From NCBI GenBank assembly GCA_964585065.1, contig CAZPCB010000002.1, positions 1,006-65,005 of the forward strand: a stretch of DNA of 64,000 nt, in the 5' to 3' direction. Positions 789-11,986 of this stretch are shown in pieces. Source of the DNA: an uncultured Candidatus Saccharibacteria bacterium (GTDB lineage: Bacteria; Patescibacteriota; Minisyncoccia; SW-4-49-11). The translations under genes and the position numbers were made by a program. The notes below the pieces were generated by a model. That model saw only the letters and a program-made list of their open reading frames with translations, was not told where the DNA came from and searched no databases. The stretch's first letter is position 1. Every line of letters begins with the position of its first letter.

Positions 789-1331
789 ATGAAAAAAATT
801 GTTAAAATAATTGCATTAATAATAGGTATTGGTGTTTCTTCAATTTTATTAATAGGATTTATATTTACTATAACTGAAGACCCACTAGAAAAAAGCGTAA
901 AAATTATTGTTAAATCTCTAAATGAAAAAGATAGAGTAACATTTGATCAATATGTAGATCTCAAACAACTATCAGACAATATATCAAGGTCTGCTACAGA
1001 AGAGACTGCCCCAGATAGTTTGTCAGAATATAGCAAGAGACCTGATGTAGATGATGGAGATATAAGCTTTTTAAAAGATTTAATTTCAGAATATACTTCT
1101 GGAAAGTATACCGAGGTAGTTGATCTGTACTTCCAAGGTCAAGGAGAGATTAACGGCCCCCTTAAGTTTCTACTAGATATTGATGGGAAAGCAATTCGTA
1201 CAAAAATTACAAAAACTGAGACGAATGGGACTCTAACATATATACCTCCTTCTGGTGTAAATGATACGGAAAAATCTTATATTTTTGAGAAAAGGGGGGA
1301 ATATTGGGTTTTAGTAAATGCAATTAAGTAG
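789..1331 (+). CDS. hypothetical protein with N-terminal transmembrane anchor
   Basis: 180-aa ORF with a hydrophobic N-terminus (IIALIIGIGVSSILLIGFIF); no recognisable domain. Confidence 0.5.
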   Translation: MKKIVKIIALIIGIGVSSILLIGFIFTITEDPLEKSVKIIVKSLNEKDRVTFDQYVDLKQLSDNISRSATEETAPDSLSEYSKRPDVDDGDISFLKDLISEYTSGKYTEVVDLYFQGQGEINGPLKFLLDIDGKAIRTKITKTETNGTLTYIPPSGVNDTEKSYIFEKRGEYWVLVNAIK

Positions 1332-1353: not shown

Positions 1354-1393
1354 CCCACTCAAAGGTTCGAACATCCTCTAGCTCCCGGAGCCA
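1354..1393. repeat. pseudo-tRNA 3'-end fragment (ccactcaaaggttcgaacatcctctagctcccggagcca), degenerate copy of the tRNA-Asn T-loop/acceptor 3' half
   Basis: Contains ggttcgaa (T-loop) and ..cggagcca; the same fragment recurs at 3996-4036. Confidence 0.6.
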
Positions 1394-1573
1394 AACAAGA
1401 TAAAGCCAGGGTAATTCCTGGTTTTGTTTTTGTTATTGACTTTGAGAAAGTAGGATGAGAACCTGGGGAAGGGGTCGGGAAACGGAAGTTTCCCGTGGCG
1501 GAAATACCAAAACCGAGGGGTTTTGGGGAGTGAATCCCATTCACGACTGGTTTGCAATCCTACTCGCGGAGCA
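1394..1573. repeat. third, diverged copy (~90% identity) of the 182-bp tRNA-linked unit, followed by the same downstream flank (aactccctttaaatagc) as the array at 718
   Basis: Alignment by eye to 354-535. Hairpin 2 changed from ttggaacc/ggttccaa to ccaaaacc/ggttttgg (four compensatory pair changes). Hairpin 1 loop changed tact to ggaa. Confidence 0.85.
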
Positions 1574-1611: not shown

Positions 1612-2460
1612 TTATTTTTTCAACCACTTATTAAAGAATTCTCTTTGTAATGTATTACTCTCTTTTATAACTTGACTCAATCCATGATCAGCTTCATTGA
1701 AATAATGAAAATCAACACTATTATGACCCGCTTCTATAAGTTTATTGAAAAATTTTACTGCAATACTAGGAATTACTTGGACATCTTGCCCTCCTTGAAT
1801 AATTTGTAATGGAATAGTTTTATCTATCTCTTCTACATTCTGATAGGGAGATTTAGCTTTTATTAGCTCCTCTGAATTTGTATCATACATATCTGAATGC
1901 CATTCTTTCAAACCCGGTCTACTTATATATTCGCTTGCAATATCTAACAGGGAGCTTTGTATACTAACACATCGTATCCAATTTAGAGATTTACGTAATA
2001 TGTTCAAACTCATTAAACCACCTCTACTCATTCCCCTCATTCCAATTCTCGTAGAGTCTACATAGTCCAAGCTATCTATTACTGGTTTTAGATTAATAAT
2101 ATCCTCTAAATCCATACCTGAAAGCTCATCTTTTCCCTCACTACCCCCATTACCAGAGTATTGTGACGCAATTACCACATAGCCCCAAGAGGCAATAATA
2201 CATATAACTCCGATAAGCTTTTTACCAGTTATAACACCAAACTCTTTTGAGCCACCTCTATTGTAGATAATACATGGATATACACCATCTGCTTTTGGTT
2301 TTACAATATATCCTTTGATTTGTCGTCCATCTGAATCATAAGTAAGGTCATATAAATCCAACATGTCTAATGTATTCCAAGTCAATTTTTGCGTATCTAA
2401 AGGGAGAGCCTGCAATGTCTCTTGAACGATAGAATTCCAATCTATAGGTAATAACTTCAT
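1612..2460 (-). CDS. alpha/beta hydrolase, S9 prolyl-oligopeptidase/dienelactone-hydrolase-like catalytic domain
   Basis: 282 aa; nucleophile elbow GMSRGG, C-terminal ..GGQDVQV..ADHG arrangement typical of S9/DLH-fold serine hydrolases. Confidence 0.6.
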   Translation of the reverse strand: MKLLPIDWNSIVQETLQALPLDTQKLTWNTLDMLDLYDLTYDSDGRQIKGYIVKPKADGVYPCIIYNRGGSKEFGVITGKKLIGVICIIASWGYVVIASQYSGNGGSEGKDELSGMDLEDIINLKPVIDSLDYVDSTRIGMRGMSRGGLMSLNILRKSLNWIRCVSIQSSLLDIASEYISRPGLKEWHSDMYDTNSEELIKAKSPYQNVEEIDKTIPLQIIQGGQDVQVIPSIAVKFFNKLIEAGHNSVDFHYFNEADHGLSQVIKESNTLQREFFNKWLKK

Positions 2461-2467
2461 GAGATTA

Positions 2468-3685
2468 TTATATATACTTTTGAGCTTCTATCCACTCCTC
2501 CTCGGATAAATTTCCTTTAATCACAAGAGATTTAATATGAGATGATAGGAATTGTTTTGCTAGAGATATAACTTCTTCATAAGATATTGCTCTGACTTGC
2601 TCATAGAAATCTTCTAAGGTAAGATGTATTCCGTCATCATAACGCAACTGAAATCCATAAAAAGACTGTATGTCATATATGCTACCATCTTGAGTTTTTT
2701 CATCACTTATATAAATAGTTTTATATCTTTCTATATCTTGTGGCGTTATCAAAGACTCCAGATTATTAATAGAGTTATAGATAATTTGCAATGACTCTAA
2801 TAGCTTCTCTTTATCTATTTTATATTGAATCTGTATGTCTATACTATTAGGATGTACATTTGAATATGAATCAATCCAATATACTAAACCATTCTTAATT
2901 CGTAGTTCTTGTAATAATACTGAAGTCCAAAAATTAGCTAAAGTTGTTCGTAGAATTGATACAGCCGTGCTAGTTCTAAGGTTTATCGTATTGGGGATAG
3001 CATACCCAAATAAAACTTCTAATGTGTTATCTGATGTTGGAAGCAATCTATTAGTAGATTTTACACTTTCTAAAGCTCCAAGAGATAAAAATGGCTCTAT
3101 AGAATTTACTTCTGAATCTAATATAATCTCATTTATATCTGGAGTAATAATTAATAAATGTGCTTGGTTCTTTGTATAATGCTTTTCTGCATAATAAATA
3201 TACTCCTCATATGTAATGCTATCTAAATCCCCAAATACATTATACGCTAAAGATGTGTTAGAGTACAAAGTATCAGTAAAAATTTTATAGATATTATTTT
3301 GATCATTAGCTTTTTCTTGAGCAATAATATTTTTTTCCTTTTCAAAAGCCTCTCGAGATACTGGTTCTTGATCAAAGTTGTTTAATAATAGTTGTAAAGA
3401 AGGTAAAAGATTATCTAACTCTTGGACATGATAGTAATAGGTTAAATATGCTGTTGTATAAGCATTAGCTCTAATTCCATACTCTTCTAAAGTTTTGGCC
3501 TTAGTATACTCATCATCTCCTCCTGCCCAAAGATGTTCAAAAAAATGAGATAAGCCTTGAGCATTAACATCATCAAGTGCATATCCTCGAGCAAACCAAA
3601 GAGATACAGAAGACATAATTTGTTGCCTATCTTCTATTACTGTAGTCTTAATCCCTTGATATATCCCATGTTTAATAGTGGGCAT
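2468..3685 (-). CDS. M16 family (pitrilysin/insulinase-like) zinc peptidase
   Basis: 405 aa; inverted zinc-binding motif HFFEH (HxxEH) near the N-terminus followed by a downstream Glu region; sits 7 bp from the hydrolase gene, likely an operon. Confidence 0.75.
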   Translation of the reverse strand: MPTIKHGIYQGIKTTVIEDRQQIMSSVSLWFARGYALDDVNAQGLSHFFEHLWAGGDDEYTKAKTLEEYGIRANAYTTAYLTYYYHVQELDNLLPSLQLLLNNFDQEPVSREAFEKEKNIIAQEKANDQNNIYKIFTDTLYSNTSLAYNVFGDLDSITYEEYIYYAEKHYTKNQAHLLIITPDINEIILDSEVNSIEPFLSLGALESVKSTNRLLPTSDNTLEVLFGYAIPNTINLRTSTAVSILRTTLANFWTSVLLQELRIKNGLVYWIDSYSNVHPNSIDIQIQYKIDKEKLLESLQIIYNSINNLESLITPQDIERYKTIYISDEKTQDGSIYDIQSFYGFQLRYDDGIHLTLEDFYEQVRAISYEEVISLAKQFLSSHIKSLVIKGNLSEEEWIEAQKYI

Positions 3686-3716
3686 AATAATGTTGTTTAA
3701 ACTATACTCAGTATAT

Positions 3717-3751
3717 ATAAAATAATGAGGGAAGGCAACTTGTACCTTCCC
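3717..3751 (-). terminator. intrinsic terminator-like hairpin (minus orientation GGGAAGG-N9-CCTTCCC followed by tcattatttt) between a GC-rich leader/small ORF and the M16 peptidase start
   Basis: Plus-strand gggaaggcaacttgtaccttccc at 3729-3751, with a T-run on the minus strand. Confidence 0.45.
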
Positions 3752-3788
3752 TGTTTGGAACTTGGAGCCTAGTAGCTACCGTTGAGGA

Positions 3789-3869
3789 CTACTTGCTGGG
3801 ACGAGGGGTGGGACGGCCAGAGCCATTCCCCCAACCTTGCGAACCGCCACCACCATTGCTATTGGCCAT
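3789..3869 (-). CDS. possible 26-aa Gly-rich small peptide (MANSNGGGGSQGWGNGSGRPTPRPSK) in a GC-rich patch; could instead be a structured leader RNA
   Basis: ATG at 3869, TAG at 3789-3791, GGAG 11 nt upstream; codon usage is GC-rich and unlike its surroundings; has its own promoter-like element and a downstream hairpin. Confidence 0.2.
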   Translation of the reverse strand: MANSNGGGGSQGWGNGSGRPTPRPSK

Positions 3870-3922
3870 TGAAATGAATCTCCGAAACGAAGGGGTAGAG
3901 AGACATTACTGTCTCAAAACCA

Positions 3923-3961
3923 AATCTATCACAAATATTAATATTTGTCAATAACTGTCAA
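3923..3961 (-). promoter_or_regulatory. sigma70-like promoter on the minus strand: TTGACAgttaTTGACA, then 17 bp, then TAGATT
   Basis: Reverse complement of 3923-3961; -35 at 3946-3951, -10 at 3923-3928; nearly the same architecture recurs at 63443-63481. Confidence 0.45.
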
Positions 3962-3995
3962 TTATATTAATTCTTCCTGAAAACCTCCTAGATTA

Positions 3996-4052
3996 CCCAC
4001 TCAAAGGTTCGAACATCGTCTAGCTCGCGGAGCCAACTCTCTTTAAATAGCT
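3996..4052. repeat. solo copy of the pseudo-tRNA-3' fragment joined directly to the downstream-flank motif (..cgcggagcca|actctctttaaatagc), i.e. an empty-site/attR-like junction
   Basis: Same fragment and flank as at 1354-1393/1574-1590, without the 182-bp unit between them. Confidence 0.6.
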
Positions 4053-4106
4053 TGATCGTAATATTCTCAATTAATGCTATACTACATGTATATTTAACTC
4101 TATTAT

Positions 4107-5654
4107 ATGAAAGTTAGTAGAAAAATCTTTTTCATAGCCCCAGGGATTATATTGTTATGTGTAGTGATATTAAGTGGGTATATAATAATGAATAGTAATA
4201 CTCAATCAGCTACCTCTCCTAATACACCACCCTACTTAACGGAAGTAAGGGATTATACATTACATAATACTATTTCATTTATAAAACCAATTGATTATAC
4301 AAAATACCAGAATAATCAGGAAGATCTAGATATTGCTATGCAAAAAACCTATCTCGAGGGAGGAATAACTTTTGATGAATTTTTAGAACTGAATAGTATG
4401 GTAAATTTAATAGATAATAATCTTAAAGATATAGAGGCAACTCTATATTACAACTCAGAAACTGTGCTATCTGGAGTTATTTTGAGCTCTAATAAAGAAG
4501 TTTTTTACACAAATGCACGCCAAAAACTACAAGAGTTGAATATTAATTCCCCAGATCTCACCTCTCTCAAAATCACTGAGATATATTTCCGGACCACCTC
4601 TCAAGATTCTAGAGCTTTAGAGTTGGCTTATTTATTCAATATCAACACTGATGTTGAATTTAATAAAAATCTTAAAATAAAACTAGATAATGCTATTAAC
4701 TCTAATAATTACTCCGATTTAGAAAATACAGGGTTAAATATATCTAACCCTTATAATACCGATAATTATGGACTCAAAAGATTAAAAAGGGAGAATGAAG
4801 AAAAGACTAAGAGATTAGCACAAATTGAGTCCTGTATACTTGATTTATATATTCAAGAAGCCGATTTAAAGATTAGATTAAATCAACCTACATGGAGCAC
4901 CAAAAAAGGCCAGTATACAGAAACTATATCTAATCTGAGTAATAAAATTGGATCAATAAACTCACAAGGAGAAAGGACTATAATAGGATGTGAACAATAT
5001 CATTTCCACAATATCCAAATCAGATTCACAAAACCACTCTCTATTAGTGATATTCAGGAGATTGAGAATACCTTACCATTAATTTATCCCAAAAAATATA
5101 TAGCGGAATTAGATCCAGACTATAGGACTAACACTACTAGTACAGAAATAGATATATTAAATGCTCAATTTGATAACTATGAACCTGAAGACTATACTTA
5201 TCGTGATATAGATTTAATAACCACCACATCTACTGAAACTTCACAGTTATTTGCTTTATTTAATCCTGGGAAAAATTGGAAAGATATGAAAAATAATTAT
5301 TATCAAAATCGCACATACTTAAATATCCCTAAAGATAGTGTCGAGAAATATAGAAATGACCAGGATACAATCTATTACTTTACTAACAACCCTCAGTATA
5401 CTAATTTAAGTACTCAGTATATTGATGGTGTTACTCTCTTTACCACAACCCTAGACGATCAATATCTATGCTTACAACAATTATTAACATCAGATAACCA
5501 CTCATCTTGTAGTGTATTCTCTTTAAATCAAAGCCAGAAAAAGCTCTTACAATCCTACATAAAATTGATTGAAATTACCCCTGTAGCACCACATACCCAC
5601 ACAGACTTATATAAATTTGAGGCAAGCCCAACTTCTTCTTTTTGGGTAAAGTAA
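4107..5654 (+). CDS. hypothetical membrane-anchored protein (N/T/Y-rich, low complexity)
   Basis: 515-aa ORF; N-terminal TM (IFFIAPGIILLCVVILSGYII); no recognisable domain. Confidence 0.5.
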   Translation: MKVSRKIFFIAPGIILLCVVILSGYIIMNSNTQSATSPNTPPYLTEVRDYTLHNTISFIKPIDYTKYQNNQEDLDIAMQKTYLEGGITFDEFLELNSMVNLIDNNLKDIEATLYYNSETVLSGVILSSNKEVFYTNARQKLQELNINSPDLTSLKITEIYFRTTSQDSRALELAYLFNINTDVEFNKNLKIKLDNAINSNNYSDLENTGLNISNPYNTDNYGLKRLKRENEEKTKRLAQIESCILDLYIQEADLKIRLNQPTWSTKKGQYTETISNLSNKIGSINSQGERTIIGCEQYHFHNIQIRFTKPLSISDIQEIENTLPLIYPKKYIAELDPDYRTNTTSTEIDILNAQFDNYEPEDYTYRDIDLITTTSTETSQLFALFNPGKNWKDMKNNYYQNRTYLNIPKDSVEKYRNDQDTIYYFTNNPQYTNLSTQYIDGVTLFTTTLDDQYLCLQQLLTSDNHSSCSVFSLNQSQKKLLQSYIKLIEITPVAPHTHTDLYKFEASPTSSFWVK

Positions 5655-7460: not shown

Positions 7461-7541
7461 AAACTTAAGAATAAAGAATCCCCCCACTTAGGTGAGAGGA
7501 TTGTTGGAATTAGAGTTTACTTATCTTTCGTAGAGATTAAC

Positions 7542-8450
7542 TCAGTGATTTGCCTTTGCTAATAAAGCCTGTTTACTAGGAATCCGTAGCTGATAAGCCC
7601 AACCAAGACGCTCCAGAAATCGTATGAAGTAGTAGGTAGGGTCTGGTAGTGTTACTATCTTGTCCCCCCGTACTGTAAAACCCTGTCTTGCTGAATATTC
7701 GAAGCCATGATGTAGATTATGCCAACCCTCGCCAAGAGTGATAATAGCCACCCAAGTGTTGTTACGACTACCATCGCGGGTAATGAATGGCTGATCACCT
7801 ACTAAGTGGGCCACAGAGTTTACCGTAGCAACACCGTGGAACAAAAGAGTAGTGCTCAGACAAAATGCAACCAACCATTCTATACCACCGATATGCCAGG
7901 AGATCCAAGCTAATGCCAAAGCTGGCACTATATGTAGTCTATCGATCAAACGTAATACAGGATCAGACTCTATATCAGCTGGTAGGGTACTAGGATGAAA
8001 TCCAGGTGAAAGTATCCAACCTATCTGAGCATGCCAAAAACCATGCAGTCGATTTCTATACATCAGAGGGCTATGAGGATCATCCAAGGTATCAACATGA
8101 CGATGATGGGCCTTGTGATGAGCCTTCCACCAACTTGGTCCCATCTGGCCTGCTGAGGCTGTTATTATGGATCCGATCCACCATACTAGTCTAGGAGCCT
8201 TATAGCTACCATGAGTTATCAAGCGATGGTAAATGGCAGTAATTCCAAGCATCCGTACTAGGTATAATACTGTAGCCCAGAGTATGGCGCATAAGCCAAG
8301 TCTCTCCCGAAACAACAGTAGACAGCCTAGATGTGCAACCAGTATGAATACCGGTCCCATACCATGCAAAAACCGAAGGAGATGGGATTGGGAAATAGAA
8401 TGGGAAGATACTGCTGTGGAACTGATAGATTTTGAATTAAACATCAGCAT
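7542..8450 (-). CDS. membrane acyl-lipid/acyl-CoA delta-9 fatty acid desaturase (DesC-like)
   Basis: Three His boxes: HRLITH, HHKAHHRH..DPHSP, GEGWHNLHHGFEYSARQG. GC-rich codons. The ORF-track start (8513) is a TTG; the ATG at 8450 is more likely. Confidence 0.8.
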   Translation of the reverse strand: MLMFNSKSISSTAVSSHSISQSHLLRFLHGMGPVFILVAHLGCLLLFRERLGLCAILWATVLYLVRMLGITAIYHRLITHGSYKAPRLVWWIGSIITASAGQMGPSWWKAHHKAHHRHVDTLDDPHSPLMYRNRLHGFWHAQIGWILSPGFHPSTLPADIESDPVLRLIDRLHIVPALALAWISWHIGGIEWLVAFCLSTTLLFHGVATVNSVAHLVGDQPFITRDGSRNNTWVAIITLGEGWHNLHHGFEYSARQGFTVRGDKIVTLPDPTYYFIRFLERLGWAYQLRIPSKQALLAKANH

Positions 8451-8612
8451 ATTCCAGCCCAAACTGGACCATAAGGACATAAACACCTTAGCATACTTAT
8501 TATGTTTAATCAATATACAGAAATATATCTATTCTAGGATATGACACTTCTATCCTTCAAAGAAAAATCCCTCCAGCTGAGCCAAAGGGATTGAGTTAGA
8601 TTGAATTGTAGA

Positions 8613-9314
8613 TCAGATGAGAGCTGAGGCAGCCAGCTTGGCGATTTCACGGGTGGAGAATCCGATAGAGACCAAAGACTCCTGATACGCGATAAGGAAA
8701 TCCTCAATGAGGTCTTCCCTGTCCATTTGGAGGACGGCCGCGTCACCGGCTACCTGATCAAGCATAATGCGTACCAAGGGGAGATTGTCCCGATTGGCCT
8801 GCTCGAGCTCCTCACGACTGGCTTCAAAATTGGCTTTGAGCCATTCTTGGCCATAATTGAGATGAGTGTATTCATCCTTGACTACTCCCTCGGTGATTTT
8901 CCGCGCAAACGGATCGGCAACAGGTATATAGATGTGATAAGCTGCAATTGCAAAGGCCTCGATGAGAATCGCTTGAATCAGCAAACAGGTGACTACCTTC
9001 CTCTCTGTAAAAGCTTTTTGAAAATTGCCATGTAGGGGCAAGAAAAACTTTTTAGCAAAAGGTATATCTGCTTGCACTCCCAAGTTGCGGGCACAGGCAG
9101 TGAAACCCTTCATATGCCTCAGCTCCATACCCGCAAGGCGGGTAAGCTCTTCAGCCTGATCGGGTAGCAAGCTACCAAGGGAAATGTAATTGTCATAAGC
9201 TTCTTGCTCACCTTCAATCACAATGGCATTAATCCTACTATAGGCATCTTTGTAAATGGCGCTGGTGAAGTCAGGAAGAGAGATTTGTTCTTGAGAAAGA
9301 GCAGTTGTGTTCAT
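8613..9314 (-). CDS. aldehyde-deformylating oxygenase (cyanobacterial-type alkane-forming ADO, ferritin-like di-iron)
   Basis: The strings [71 protein letters not shown].. are close to the Synechococcus orf1593 family as recalled. ATG at 9314; the track start at 9338 is a TTG. Confidence 0.8.
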
Positions 9315-9446
9315 AATGGGTATTGGATAAAAATCCAAGAGGTCATTTTTATTATACGCCGCTTATTTTGCTTTGTATATATACACGAAATCATTGACAA
9401 TACCCCCTCAACACCCTATTATATACGTACTTTCTTTCATATCCTC

Positions 9447-9752
9447 ATGAAGCCAATTACAAGGAGTTCCAGAATTTCACTGATTGTGGGAACATTGATT
9501 AGAAAAAGATATCGTTATTATCATATAGAGAAAAAAGAGGCCATATTGCGTGGAGTAATATATGCTATACCTGGTCAAGTTCTTCCTCACTGCAATGGAG
9601 ATTGGACTGAATTAGAGCTGGGTTTATATGAATATTTTAGAACAAAGGGACAGCCTGGATCATTTAATGAGGAAGAGATGCAGACTCTTACTCGAGAGTA
9701 TTTCTCATCATTGCAAGCAACTATAGAATATATCACCCCCAAGGAAGACTAA
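9447..9752 (+). CDS. possible small hypothetical protein in the divergent ADO/CFA-synthase intergenic region
   Basis: ATG-initiated portion (101 aa) of track ORF 9204-9752; the upstream part overlaps ADO and is likely spurious. Confidence 0.15.
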   Translation: MKPITRSSRISLIVGTLIRKRYRYYHIEKKEAILRGVIYAIPGQVLPHCNGDWTELELGLYEYFRTKGQPGSFNEEEMQTLTREYFSSLQATIEYITPKED

Positions 9753-9865
9753 TCTCTTCCTTTTTTCTTTGCATAATTTGCTATAAATCCTCTTGGATAC
9801 TTGACTTTTACCTCATTTCCTGTTAGTGTTTCAAAGCATACTCTTCGGGGTATCGTTCTTTCACA

Positions 9866-11071
9866 ATGGAGCATTTAACCATGTCTGCTCAGACACGTGT
9901 TGAGAGATTTTTTGATAAAGCAGGAGTTGACCAAACCTTTATTACTGCAACTTCTAAGTTTTATAAAGCTTTCGATGGACGGTTCACCCTTGGAATGGGT
10001 GAATCTTATATCAATGGCAGTTTTGCGATTGGTGATGAGAATCTCATCGAAATGTTTACCAGAATTTTTGGAAGCTTAAATGGATTCTTGCGGGGAGATG
10101 ATTATGCTGGGTTTAGCTCACTGGGATTTTATCGGCTGTATCAGCTGATGAATGCCACCCAAATGATCAATTGGCAACACATCCGTGCAAAGTATTTTGC
10201 GGATATTCACTATGAGCTACCTCATCAGCTTTTTGTCCAGATGCTTGGCCCCTCTCGGGCTTATAGCTCTGGTTATTGGCCAGAGGGGGTGGAGACTCTA
10301 GACCAGGCTCAGGATGCCAAGTTTGACTTGATTATCCGCAAGCTTGGTCTCAAAGCCGGTGAAACCGTACTCGACTTCGGTTGTGGGGCGGGTAGTTTTG
10401 GCAGATATGCAGGATCTCGCGGTATTCGAGTCGTAGGACTCAATATCTGCCAGGAACAACTCGCTTATGCTCGAGCTCACAATGACCAAGAAGTTCCTGC
10501 AATTTACCTTGATTTTAATTTGGTAACACAAAGTGTTGCTGAGTTACAATCAATTCTCAAACCCTATGGGATTGAGAATTTCGATGCTGTTACCTTTATT
10601 GGCTCGATTGAGCATGTGGGTTGGAAGAACTATGCTTCTCTCTATCGCAAGCTCTATCAGCTTCTGAATCCTACGGGACGGATTCTCTGCCATGTTATTG
10701 GATCCTATATTCCATTACCGGTGGCCGATCCCTATATCATGACCAAGATTTTCCCTGACTCGCAGCTTGCTGTGATCAGTGAAATGACCAAGGCAACTGA
10801 GAAGACTGGCTTCCAGCTAATGGATTGGCACAACCTGGAAACAGGTGTTCACTCCTATGCCAAGACACTGAGAGCTTGGCTTAACAACTTCCAAACCAAC
10901 TGGGAAACTATCAAGCCCTCTATGCCTCACAAAGATAAGGAAGCCTTTTACCGAGAATGGGTATTCTACCTAATGCTCTGTATTGGAGCCTTCGAGTCTG
11001 ACTTTGTCAATGTTGGGCACTATGTGTTCCGCAAGACTGCAGACACTCACCCATTCACTCCAGTCCGCTAA
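9866..11071 (+). CDS. cyclopropane-fatty-acyl-phospholipid synthase family SAM-dependent methyltransferase
   Basis: 401 aa; SAM motif VLDFGCGAGSF; CMAS-like length and C-terminal region; GC-rich. Confidence 0.7.
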   Translation: MEHLTMSAQTRVERFFDKAGVDQTFITATSKFYKAFDGRFTLGMGESYINGSFAIGDENLIEMFTRIFGSLNGFLRGDDYAGFSSLGFYRLYQLMNATQMINWQHIRAKYFADIHYELPHQLFVQMLGPSRAYSSGYWPEGVETLDQAQDAKFDLIIRKLGLKAGETVLDFGCGAGSFGRYAGSRGIRVVGLNICQEQLAYARAHNDQEVPAIYLDFNLVTQSVAELQSILKPYGIENFDAVTFIGSIEHVGWKNYASLYRKLYQLLNPTGRILCHVIGSYIPLPVADPYIMTKIFPDSQLAVISEMTKATEKTGFQLMDWHNLETGVHSYAKTLRAWLNNFQTNWETIKPSMPHKDKEAFYREWVFYLMLCIGAFESDFVNVGHYVFRKTADTHPFTPVR

Positions 11072-11086
11072 GCCCTGAATACTCAC

Positions 11087-11113
11087 CGAGGGAAGCCCAG
11101 CTTCCCTCTTTTT
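11087..11113 (+). terminator. rho-independent terminator (gagggaagc-cca-gcttccctc + T6)
   Basis: Hairpin plus T-run directly after the CFA-synthase-like stop. Confidence 0.6.
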
Positions 11114-11184
11114 TATTACTCTTGTTATTTTCCTAATAATATACTATGATAAAGCGGTTGTGAAACTAATAATATACTAAATAT

Positions 11185-11544
11185 ATGAAGAATTTAGGTA
11201 TAGAGATTGTTGGAGATTTAAAAGGTATTGATAAAGAATTTTTAACCCATATTAATAGTGATGAAATTCAGGCTGAGATTTCTCGGCTTATCTCTCATTA
11301 TGGATTTCATGAGCTTGGAAACTATTATCATTCTTTTGAGCCAGGACTCACAGCTGCTGTCGCTCTTGCCGAATCTCATGTAACCTTTCATACTTGGCCT
11401 GAATTTGGGTATGTAAGTTTGAATGTTTTTACCTGTAATTATACCAAAGATAATGATGATAATGCCAAAGCTTTATTTGATGATATCGCCTCCCTATTCC
11501 GAGCAGAGAATATAGATAAACAAATCATTTTACGTAATCATTAG
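11185..11544 (+). CDS. speH: S-adenosylmethionine decarboxylase proenzyme (small bacterial/archaeal SpeH type)
   Basis: 119 aa; ESHVTFHTWPEFGYVSLNVFTC matches the AdoMetDC processing-site region (ESH.S.HTWPE). Confidence 0.7.
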   Translation: MKNLGIEIVGDLKGIDKEFLTHINSDEIQAEISRLISHYGFHELGNYYHSFEPGLTAAVALAESHVTFHTWPEFGYVSLNVFTCNYTKDNDDNAKALFDDIASLFRAENIDKQIILRNH

Positions 11545-11550
11545 AAATAA

Positions 11551-11580
11551 AAAAGCCCCCGACAAATGCTGGGGGCTGAG
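11551..11580. terminator. bidirectional terminator hairpin (gccccc-N10-gggggc) between convergent speH and the 11598-11864 ORF
   Basis: aaaagcccccgacaaatgctgggggct. Confidence 0.55.
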
Positions 11581-11597
11581 TGGAAGGGCAAAAGCCC

Positions 11598-11864
11598 TTA
11601 TTTGTGTACCTGTGAAGGCATTGGAGGGTTGGGGTCGGTCGGATCCACACCCAACAGCGCCGGCACAGTTAGGGCTGCAAGGCCCACAACCAAAAGACCT
11701 AGCAACACCTTCTTGAAGGGTGAGCGACGATCCTGACGTGGACGAGGGGGCAGAGGGGGATCGAGCACAACTCGATCCCCTTTGAAGTTACCCCCTTTGA
11801 GAAAAGCAGGAAGCTGAGGTTCCACTTGGCCAACATTGAGAAAGGCGGGGAGTTCAGGTGCCAT
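11598..11864 (-). CDS. hypothetical Pro-rich protein with a C-terminal hydrophobic segment; GC-rich
   Basis: 88 aa, ATG start; composition (~58% GC) is foreign relative to its flanks. Confidence 0.3.
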   Translation of the reverse strand: MAPELPAFLNVGQVEPQLPAFLKGGNFKGDRVVLDPPLPPRPRQDRRSPFKKVLLGLLVVGLAALTVPALLGVDPTDPNPPMPSQVHK

Positions 11865-11986
11865 TGAATGAACAAAACAATGTAGTTCGAAAAAAATTAT
11901 ACCACAAAAACCCTATTTTGTCAATATATAATAACACTATTTTAGCATATGCTTGCGAATTTTACTGAAAAAGGTATACTATCTCT

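Follow-up and report, generated by a model that had tools for sequence, protein, structure and literature searches.

A probable stand-alone gene for a glycine-rich 26-amino-acid peptide upstream of an M16 peptidase gene in Paceibacteria

Stand-alone small open reading frame (sORF) genes of bacteria are monocistronic, with transcripts of about 200 nt and fewer than 50 codons; they are missed by gene callers, and their coding signature is visible only comparatively. Most characterised bacterial microproteins are hydrophobic membrane peptides. Short peptide genes also occur beside peptidase genes of the M16 family in some systems that make ribosomally synthesised and post-translationally modified peptides (RiPPs), such as PqqA with PqqF/PqqL and subtilosin with AlbE/AlbF. 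In attenuators of the trpL/hisL type, a short open reading frame (ORF) enriched in one amino acid is followed by an intrinsic terminator and an operon. Here we describe a locus that resembles each of these in part. It lies on the minus strand of a 64,000-nt stretch of contig CAZPCB010000002.1 (the window, meaning the whole stretch analysed), from an uncultured bacterium of the Candidate Phyla Radiation (CPR), where a GC-rich patch encodes a Gly-rich peptide of 26 amino acids (aa) immediately ahead of genes for an M16 and an S9-type peptidase. From comparison with related genomes, we consider it likely that the patch is a real monocistronic small-protein gene and that its product is an unmodified member of an unannotated peptide family of Paceibacteria.

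The original prediction, made from the window alone, had described a self-contained mini-locus with its own promoter and terminator, and every element was found where it had been placed. A sigma-70-type promoter (3923..3961, minus strand, as are all elements of the mini-gene) consists of TTGACA at 3961-3956, the bases gtta, a second TTGACA at 3951-3946, a 17-nt spacer and TAGATT at 3928-3923. A TG at 3931-3930 precedes TAGATT, giving an extended -10 element, TGATAGATT (3931-3923). Transcription is predicted to start near 3916, so that a stem-loop, GAGAC-AGTAAT-GTCTC (3915-3900), beginning about 8 nt past the -10 element, would form the 5' end of the mRNA. The small ORF (3869..3789, 26 aa plus stop) encodes MANSNGGGGSQGWGNGSGRPTPRPSK and has a GGAG (3883-3880) 10 nt ahead of its ATG. 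It is followed by a 3' untranslated region (UTR) at 3788-3753, with the sequence CCTCAAC.GTAGC.ACTAGGCTCCAAGTT.CAAAC, and by an intrinsic terminator identified in a promoter/terminator scan, with a 10-bp stem, AGGGAAGGTAC-AAG-TTGCCTTCCCT, at 3752-3728 and a T-rich run at 3727-3718. The predicted RNA is about 190-230 nt long. GC content is 0.57-0.60 over 3750-3899, in agreement with the roughly 58% given before, against 0.34 for the whole window; tRNA-linked repeats aside, the patch is the strongest GC island of the window.

The window by itself proves little, because promoter-like sites are at the level of shuffled sequence (7 in this kilobase, against 4.6 +/- 2.0 in shuffles, hence no excess) and because open frames come cheaply in G-rich DNA: in this segment most other frames are stop-free too, and none of them is open in every variant. 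The scan found two terminators where 0.4 were expected. Only through comparison with relatives do the promoter, the ORF and the terminator appear to exceed chance.

A search with the M16 protein returned five loci from GTDB genomes, all labelled Paceibacteria, Paceibacterota or uncultured CPR, and 18 database proteins, whose contigs were fetched for comparison. The loci carry working labels L001 to L124; the window itself is L006, and L005 and L076 are identical in sequence. In 11-12 related Paceibacteria (CPR) loci a small ORF occupies the same place upstream of M16, so homologous peptides do stand beside M16 genes elsewhere. The variant closest to that of the window is found in L121 (MANNNGGGGSQGWGNGSSRPRPGK). 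L001 encodes MAAQTGGTKTGGGTGKGSGHGGGSGTRGK, from which the L120 peptide differs by one residue. L003 carries two complete ORFs in tandem, the first of the L001 type and the second encoding MGNNNRHGNPGSGTKGTGGGGPAPTRPGGGGK. The peptide of L005 is MAKNTGGGTKSNSGGRPSQNTGGSGGTNGTRGK, that of L008 has the same sequence with one Ser replaced by Thr, and L007 encodes MTTQMGTNTGGGTGQGTGGGGTGGGGWGGGSGTRGK. L123 and L124 share (MLTQ)MG[PT]NQGGGTGQGTGGGGTGGGGWGGGSGTRGK, and the contig of L122 holds only the ..RGK-stop end. These peptides fall into sequence types beginning MAAQTGGTK.., MAKNTGGGTK.., MAN[SN]NGGGGSQGW.. and MGNNNRHGNPGSG.., or containing ..GGGTGQGTGGGGTGGGGWGGGSGTRGK. Five loci (L004 and L116-L119) have no such ORF; there, msrB-msrA lies divergently upstream and the spacer is just 146 nt. 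In L002, UTR remnants are kept, and the Gly-rich ORF is absent from the 170 nt available. As far as could be searched, the peptide family seems confined to one Paceibacteria (CPR) clade.

The signals for transcription are conserved in these relatives. In an alignment of ten loci, the distance between the -35 element (TTGACA; TTGATA in L123) and the -10 element (TAGATT or TAATAT) is always 17 nt, with free spacer sequence, and this footprint holds too in L123 and L124, whose flanks have diverged. The 5' hairpin is kept in all loci at a fixed distance from the -10 element. In L123 and L124 it reads GAGATG..CATCTC, a compensatory change from C:G to U:A, and it is present in the minimum free energy (MFE) fold of nearly all variants. 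The terminator stem, likewise kept in all loci, is part of nine of the ten variant MFE folds; between ORF and terminator, the 3' UTR is about 85-90% identical across loci. The invariant spacing of the promoter footprint, the compensatory change in the 5' hairpin and the conserved terminator together argue that the patch is a transcription unit of its own, and conservation thereby supports the self-contained mini-locus that had been proposed.

The ORF bears the marks of a coding sequence. In the window, L121, L001, both copies of L003, L005/L076, L007, L008, L120, L123 and L124, its frame runs unbroken from an ATGGC.. start to a ..GGCAAGTAR end, both of them alignable. Six ORF lengths occur (24, 26, 29, 32, 33 and 36 codons), all differing by multiples of three, and the stop codon swaps among TAA, TAG and TGA across relatives. 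Pooled over four groups, 37 of the 47 variable sites fall at codon position 3 (binomial p = 2.3e-10); the share is 8/11 in group A (L001, the first copy of L003, and L120), 4/5 in group B (L005 and L008) and 19/22 among L007, L123 and L124. Most codon changes between close pairs are synonymous. L007 and L124 differ by 18 synonymous changes and one non-synonymous change despite their diverged flanking DNA, which argues that each peptide type is under purifying selection. L007 and L123 differ by 12 synonymous and 2 non-synonymous changes, and the window and L121 by 6 and 3, with one 6-nt in-frame indel; other close pairs gave synonymous to non-synonymous ratios of 8:1 and 7:2. Given the codon-position periodicity, the in-frame indels, the conserved start and stop, and the tandem paralogue of L003, the 26-aa ORF is very probably translated.

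Some observations weigh against a simple protein-coding gene. One antisense frame shares the wobble positions and hence shows the same third-position periodicity; it is excluded only by its stop codons, which break it in four variants (L001, both copies of L003, and L123), and the sense frame is never broken. The GGAG ahead of the ATG, noted in the original prediction, is present and kept in most variants, but it is weak as a ribosome-binding site: of the 44 ORFs of at least 150 aa in the window, just 1 has a tetramer resembling the Shine-Dalgarno (SD) sequence (GGAG, GAGG, AGGA) in the 22 nt ahead of it, against 13% in random background. Because this genome barely uses SD sequences, the translation signal gains no independent support. 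In a published survey, only 48% of Parcubacteria had the anti-SD motif (PMC9297842), and the low SD use in the window is consistent with the anti-SD loss reported there for many of these bacteria. Codon usage is also atypical. GC content at third codon positions (GC3) is 0.38-0.59 in the peptide genes, whereas most neighbouring genes have 0.18-0.25 and the fatty-acid desaturase gene 0.38; GGC makes up 41% of Gly codons, against a genome norm of 6%, and ACC (55% against 25%), AAG (70% against 22%) and TCG (33% against 2%) are similarly raised. A further constraint on the nucleic acid, RNA or DNA, could lie behind this usage; strong expression and GC-biased gene conversion at a recombination hot spot are also possible sources of the bias. 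Finally, every peptide-bearing locus was retrieved through M16 or through one promoter pattern, so both the distribution of the peptide and its adjacency to M16 come from a biased sample; the promoter-pattern scan of metagenomes returned 107 stretches, and among those examined only L076, identical to L005, was a true match.

The peptides share an unusual composition. The variants have 24-36 aa, 31-50% of them Gly, are rich in Thr, Ser, Asn and Gln, and contain a few Lys, Arg, His, Trp or Pro; the last residue is always Lys. Asp and Glu are absent, aliphatic residues nearly so, and Cys occurs only as a single substitution in L120; neither a signal peptide nor a double-glycine leader is found in them. 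The window peptide is 31% Gly, free of acidic and aliphatic residues, and has a net charge of +3. At E <= 10 the peptides match no family in NCBIfam, Pfam (seven variants) or PHROGs, and an exact look-up of eight peptides in a collection of 15 billion proteins found none of them. That collection holds only an over-extended 52-aa call of the L124 ORF, which as a query finds itself alone. A crude filter found no other Gly-rich small ORF in the 64-kb window. In its layout the locus is thus like other stand-alone sORF genes; it differs in having a peptide without a Pfam, NCBIfam, PHROGs or protein-collection relative, and in the composition just described.

Two known groups of Gly-rich polypeptides are comparable. 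The KGG-repeat proteins YciG, YmdF and GsiB are small, hydrophilic and Gly-rich, with an N-terminus of the form MANHRGGSGNF.., which is reminiscent of MANSNGGGGSQG.. and MGNNNRHGNPGSG.. here. They have, however, roughly double the length and many acidic residues, and the KGG profile PF10685 matched none of the seven peptide variants in Pfam at E <= 10. The Gly-rich cationic antimicrobial peptides of plants and arthropods, such as shepherins and acanthoscurrins, have about 25-40 aa and are secreted by means of a signal peptide. Size, Gly with interspersed His, Trp, Arg and Lys, and positive charge are shared with the peptides described here, a likeness of composition that serves as a lead only; the sequences are unrelated and no export route is evident for our peptide.

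We infer from these patterns that the gene is transcribed and translated in the cell, and we propose the following model. A near-consensus sigma-70 promoter with an extended -10 element would drive a transcript of about 190-200 nt, whose short 5' stem-loop may protect or stabilise the mRNA and whose initiation region is AU-rich. The transcript would be translated into the 26-aa peptide, presumably disordered and soluble, and transcription would end at the strong intrinsic terminator, probably with high efficiency. The M16-S9 operon would then start at its own promoter, the -35 element of which lies within that terminator. Peptide types are shuffled between conserved flanks, present or absent by strain and once duplicated in tandem, each being kept by purifying selection. 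The gene sits at the edge of a variable island by tRNA-Asn, with a cargo that includes surface-type proteins. Our best guess, a speculative one, is that the peptide is a free, unmodified and soluble microprotein of an accessory, strain-variable kind.

The two genes downstream are a peptidase pair, as had been described (an M16 protein with an HxxEH motif and then an S9 hydrolase). The first encodes an M16B zinc peptidase with the motif HFFEH (3685..2468, minus strand; Pfam Peptidase_M16 and M16_C), and 7 nt further downstream the second encodes an S9-type serine hydrolase (2460..1612, minus strand; Pfam Peptidase_S9). The scan placed a promoter-like site for M16, TTGCCT-17-TATACT, at 3738-3710 on the minus strand, with its -35 element inside the descending arm of the terminator. 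The corresponding pair, TTGCCT/TTGCTT-17-TATACT/TATAAT, is kept in all M16 loci, including the peptide-less L004 and L116-L119 and the divergent L123 and L124; the whole terminator hairpin is likewise retained before M16 in the five peptide-less loci. Since hairpin and promoter-like pair are conserved with and without the peptide gene, M16 is most simply transcribed on its own, from this predicted promoter. In this sense M16 and the small gene are independent.

The link to the S9 gene is looser. S9 follows M16 in the window, L001, L005, L007, L008 and L121; it is absent from that place in L003 and L004, where tRNA-Asn stands instead, and in L118-L120, where a NUDIX gene does. L003 and L120 are therefore peptide-bearing loci without S9. 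M16 itself is a mosaic: its N-terminal 110 aa are 82-94% identical in all loci, and the remaining 295 aa exist as alleles only 46-49% identical to one another, one in the window and L001 (allele I), one in L002 alone and one in all others. Beside M16, the S9 gene of L007 and L008 is back to about 90% DNA identity with the window, and this return, with the mosaic identity, points to recombination breakpoints within M16. There is no correspondence between peptide type and M16 allele. Allele I occurs with types C and A, so that the window and L001 share an M16 allele and differ in peptide type, and allele III occurs with A, with B and with no peptide.

Which connection, if any, the peptide has to these enzymes is the question on which the readings of the locus divide. 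Both M16 enzymes and S9 oligopeptidases take short unstructured peptides as substrates, and some RiPP pathways employ M16 proteins. The likeliest functional link to the neighbours, though we would bet against it, is that the peptide is simply a short unstructured substrate turned over by peptidases of the M16B and S9 types. Speculatively, we rank such turnover above a maturation of the RiPP or bacteriocin kind.

That maturation, in which the peptide would be a precursor, or an unmodified bacteriocin or signal peptide, processed by the adjacent M16 and S9 enzymes, is the layout that the original prediction had recognised, and we find it doubtful. In all 11-12 loci that bear it, even L123 and L124 with their diverged intergenic DNA, the peptide gene immediately precedes M16, and the allelic types, the tandem paralogue and the presence/absence polymorphism do resemble bacteriocin or pheromone loci. 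As in the RiPP systems that use M16 peptidases, a short peptide gene adjoins the gene of an M16-family peptidase. The genes called around the locus in the window are those for a 515-aa membrane-anchored protein, a diacylglycerol kinase, a rhodanese, a DUF4336 protein, a fatty-acid desaturase, M16, S9 and a 180-aa protein. Among the called neighbours within about 6 kb, listed for the window and two relatives, there is no tailoring enzyme, exporter or immunity gene; the remark in the original prediction that no modifying enzyme is adjacent thus stands. Neighbours differ in relatives, and none is a tailoring enzyme. Unlike the described systems, then, the locus has no radical-SAM, YcaO, Lan or other tailoring enzyme or exporter nearby. 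In NCBIfam neither peptidase falls into a RiPP-specific subfamily, and M16 scores far below the cut-offs of any specific subfamily. The peptide itself has no recognisable split into leader and core, no double-glycine leader, no Cys- or Ser-rich core and no hydrophobic face. Nor is the linkage obligatory: M16 occurs without the peptide in five loci, the peptide without S9 in two, one M16 allele goes with several peptide types, and one type with different alleles. Even the adjacency loses weight with the retrieval of loci through M16. A literature search found nothing on Gly-rich precursors with M16 or on small Gly-rich proteins in CPR. The proposed RiPP/bacteriocin layout is therefore not supported, given the missing modifying enzyme, exporter and immunity gene, the missing co-variation of peptide and M16, and the frequent absence of S9. 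The peptide gene stands next to M16 in all peptide-bearing loci, yet nothing else links the two.

A further possibility, also raised in the original prediction, is that the ORF is a leader peptide, or the patch a riboswitch-like leader, controlling read-through of the terminator into M16-S9; one version would sense the supply of Gly-tRNA. A strong promoter, a short ORF with Gly runs and a terminator immediately ahead of an operon are indeed what trpL/hisL-type attenuators would lead one to expect, the ORF codons are rare for this genome, and the stop codon is conserved together with the next 8 nt. We nevertheless regard this as very improbable. Rfam gave no match over the patch, whether for the whole window at the gathering threshold, for 3600-4150 at E <= 10 or for six related loci; the sole match at E <= 10 was to RsaOG, on the opposite strand and at chance level. 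Consensus folding (alifold) of the 5' and 3' UTRs found no conserved structure beyond the 5' hairpin and the terminator. In the 3' UTR, a weak 4-bp helix was predicted, with one compensatory pair and a negligible covariation term of -0.16 kcal/mol. Full-transcript folds of ten variants share no interior structure between 5' hairpin and terminator, and in the folds and alignments of the variants no conserved helix competes with the terminator as an antiterminator would. The differences from attenuators extend to the ORF: within types its amino-acid sequence is kept, beyond its codon content (18:1 in the comparison above), and it is duplicated in full in L003 and dispensable elsewhere, where terminator hairpin and M16 promoter stay. 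Some 40 nt separate the stop codon from the terminator stem, which puts the stem out of reach of a ribosome. With neither an Rfam family nor a conserved interior RNA structure, and with purifying selection at the amino-acid level, the leader or riboswitch alternative is not supported. That the transcript is a non-coding small RNA, its open frame a by-product of G-rich sequence, we think just as improbable: the stop-free state of most other frames in the segment makes openness weak evidence, GC3 is far above the genome norm and SD use is rare, but the transcript body is the least conserved part, with no conserved fold (z = -1.8 for the single-sequence fold, and folds that differ among variants), and substitutions pile up at codon position 3, with indels in frame and start and stop conserved.

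Measured against RiPP loci, riboswitches, leader-peptide attenuators and KGG-repeat stress proteins, then, the peptide locus does not qualify, and the peptide gene behaves like any stand-alone bacterial sORF gene.

Its surroundings vary from genome to genome. The terminator/M16 -35 hairpin, GGGAGGCACAAGTTGCCTTCCCTC, is doubled at the ends of a variable segment in L001 (436 and 3942) and in L005 (2022 and 3942, corresponding to 657 and 2577 in L076). The left copy has, in both L001 and L005/L076, the msrB-side flank typical of peptide-less loci, with a pseudo-tRNA-3' motif right after it; the other copy is the peptide terminator. The DNA between the copies differs, L001 having a 529-aa Ricin-B lectin protein and L005 uncharacterised proteins. 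Set against the msrB-hairpin-M16 arrangement, this layout marks a variable insertion, of which the peptide gene forms the constant right-hand end. A sliding-identity comparison adds that the window has its spacer as in L003 and L008, its 5' hairpin as in L008 and L121, and its peptide type only as in L121, a pattern indicating that flanks and peptide cores have been reassorted among genomes. A mobile-element origin with an integrase is no more than an idea: no integrase or recombinase was found among the ORFs that lie in the L001 and L005 variable segments, or around the locus in the window. In form alone, the hairpin, with arms of 10 nt around a 3-5-nt centre, resembles the core site of a recombinase.

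Directly upstream of the peptide promoter, at 3991..4040 on the plus strand, lies the pseudo-tRNA-3'-end motif CCCACTCAAAGGTTCGAAC..TCGCGGAGCCA, which shares AGGTTCGAA and TCGCGGAGCCA with tRNA-Asn. It has only two copies in the 64-kb window (1354-1394 and 3991-4040, plus strand), and these bracket the S9-M16-peptide block. The motif also stands ahead of the peptide promoter in L001, L003, L005, L007, L008, L120 and L121. It may be an att-like relic or a recombination site. Viral contigs gave zero matches, both for the pseudo-tRNA motif and for the terminator hairpin. Multiple copies, of the form CCCCCACTCAAAGGTTCGAAC..TCGCGGAGCCA and usually with a terminator after them, occur in L005/L076, L007, L008 and L002. 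Near tRNA-Asn, such copies form direct repeats 1.5-3 kb apart that delimit cassette-like blocks of differing genes, and the motif contains the palindrome GTTCGAAC.

The intact tRNA-Asn gene of the window lies at 279-353 and is followed on the plus strand by two identical 182-bp units (354-717) and by a third, diverged unit (1394-1572). In each 182-bp unit, a terminator hairpin is combined with a GC-rich element of roughly 135 nt, whose end repeats the final 19-22 nt of the tRNA; this element is closed by a 9-bp stem, GAGTAGGAT..ATCCTACTC, and has internal hairpins. Unit copies in six related loci keep the fold, with four compensatory pairs in one hairpin, and the units may represent an undescribed tRNA-linked RNA element of CPR bacteria. 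The arrangement is like the tyrT-tyrV-rttR-tpr locus of E. coli, where a tRNA is followed by tandem units of about 180 bp (178 bp) ending in the last 19 nt of the tRNA; the E. coli rttR units and the Paceibacteria units both start their GC-rich part with the 5' strand of the T-stem plus ATGAGAA. A tiny basic ORF, tpr, is annotated in the E. coli locus, whereas here the Gly-rich gene is not part of the units and is read from the other strand. We rejected homology of the units to the E. coli RtT RNA (RF00391): the score was 18.8 bits against a gathering threshold of 45, and a covariance model of the Paceibacteria units (R1) misses E. coli rttR at E <= 10. The units share the RtT architecture, and homology is not supported.

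Other features of the region were recorded in passing. In L001 (8594-8892, minus strand) and L076 (8335-8563, minus strand) a group I intron (Rfam Intron_gpI, 85-87 bits) interrupts tRNA-Asn after about position 34. Two membrane-anchored proteins without a Pfam or NCBIfam match, of 515 aa (4107-5654, plus strand) and 180 aa (789-1331, plus strand), flank the peptidase block of the window within the variable region, and the Ricin-B lectin protein of L001 stands where the window has the membrane-anchored protein or proteins. From about 7540 to 11900, GC content is raised (many 80-nt windows reach at least 0.5) and the fatty-acid desaturase gene is found; the source contig also carries genes for a PF11266 protein of the aldehyde decarbonylase family, DUF4336 and rhodanese. 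The stretch with the desaturase and PF11266 is a lipid-related gene set unusual for a CPR genome.

To return to the small-protein gene, its shifting types at the edge of a tRNA-Asn-linked island invite one more speculation, which we rate as a long shot. The peptide could be a multi-allelic, recombining effector or self/non-self signal of an episymbiotic CPR bacterium, released and then trimmed or destroyed by the M16B and S9 enzymes, as maturation or as immunity, with types comparable to pherotypes or bacteriocin types.

The analysis removes a tempting RiPP annotation as unsupported. What it offers instead is a microprotein family, conserved and probably expressed at a high level, that the comparison of raw sequences brought to light. 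CPR genomes are tiny, and annotation misses most of their small genes; if the peptide has no action between cells or on a host, it would be one more such unannotated small gene. If it does act in that way, it would be among the very few candidate effectors known in CPR.

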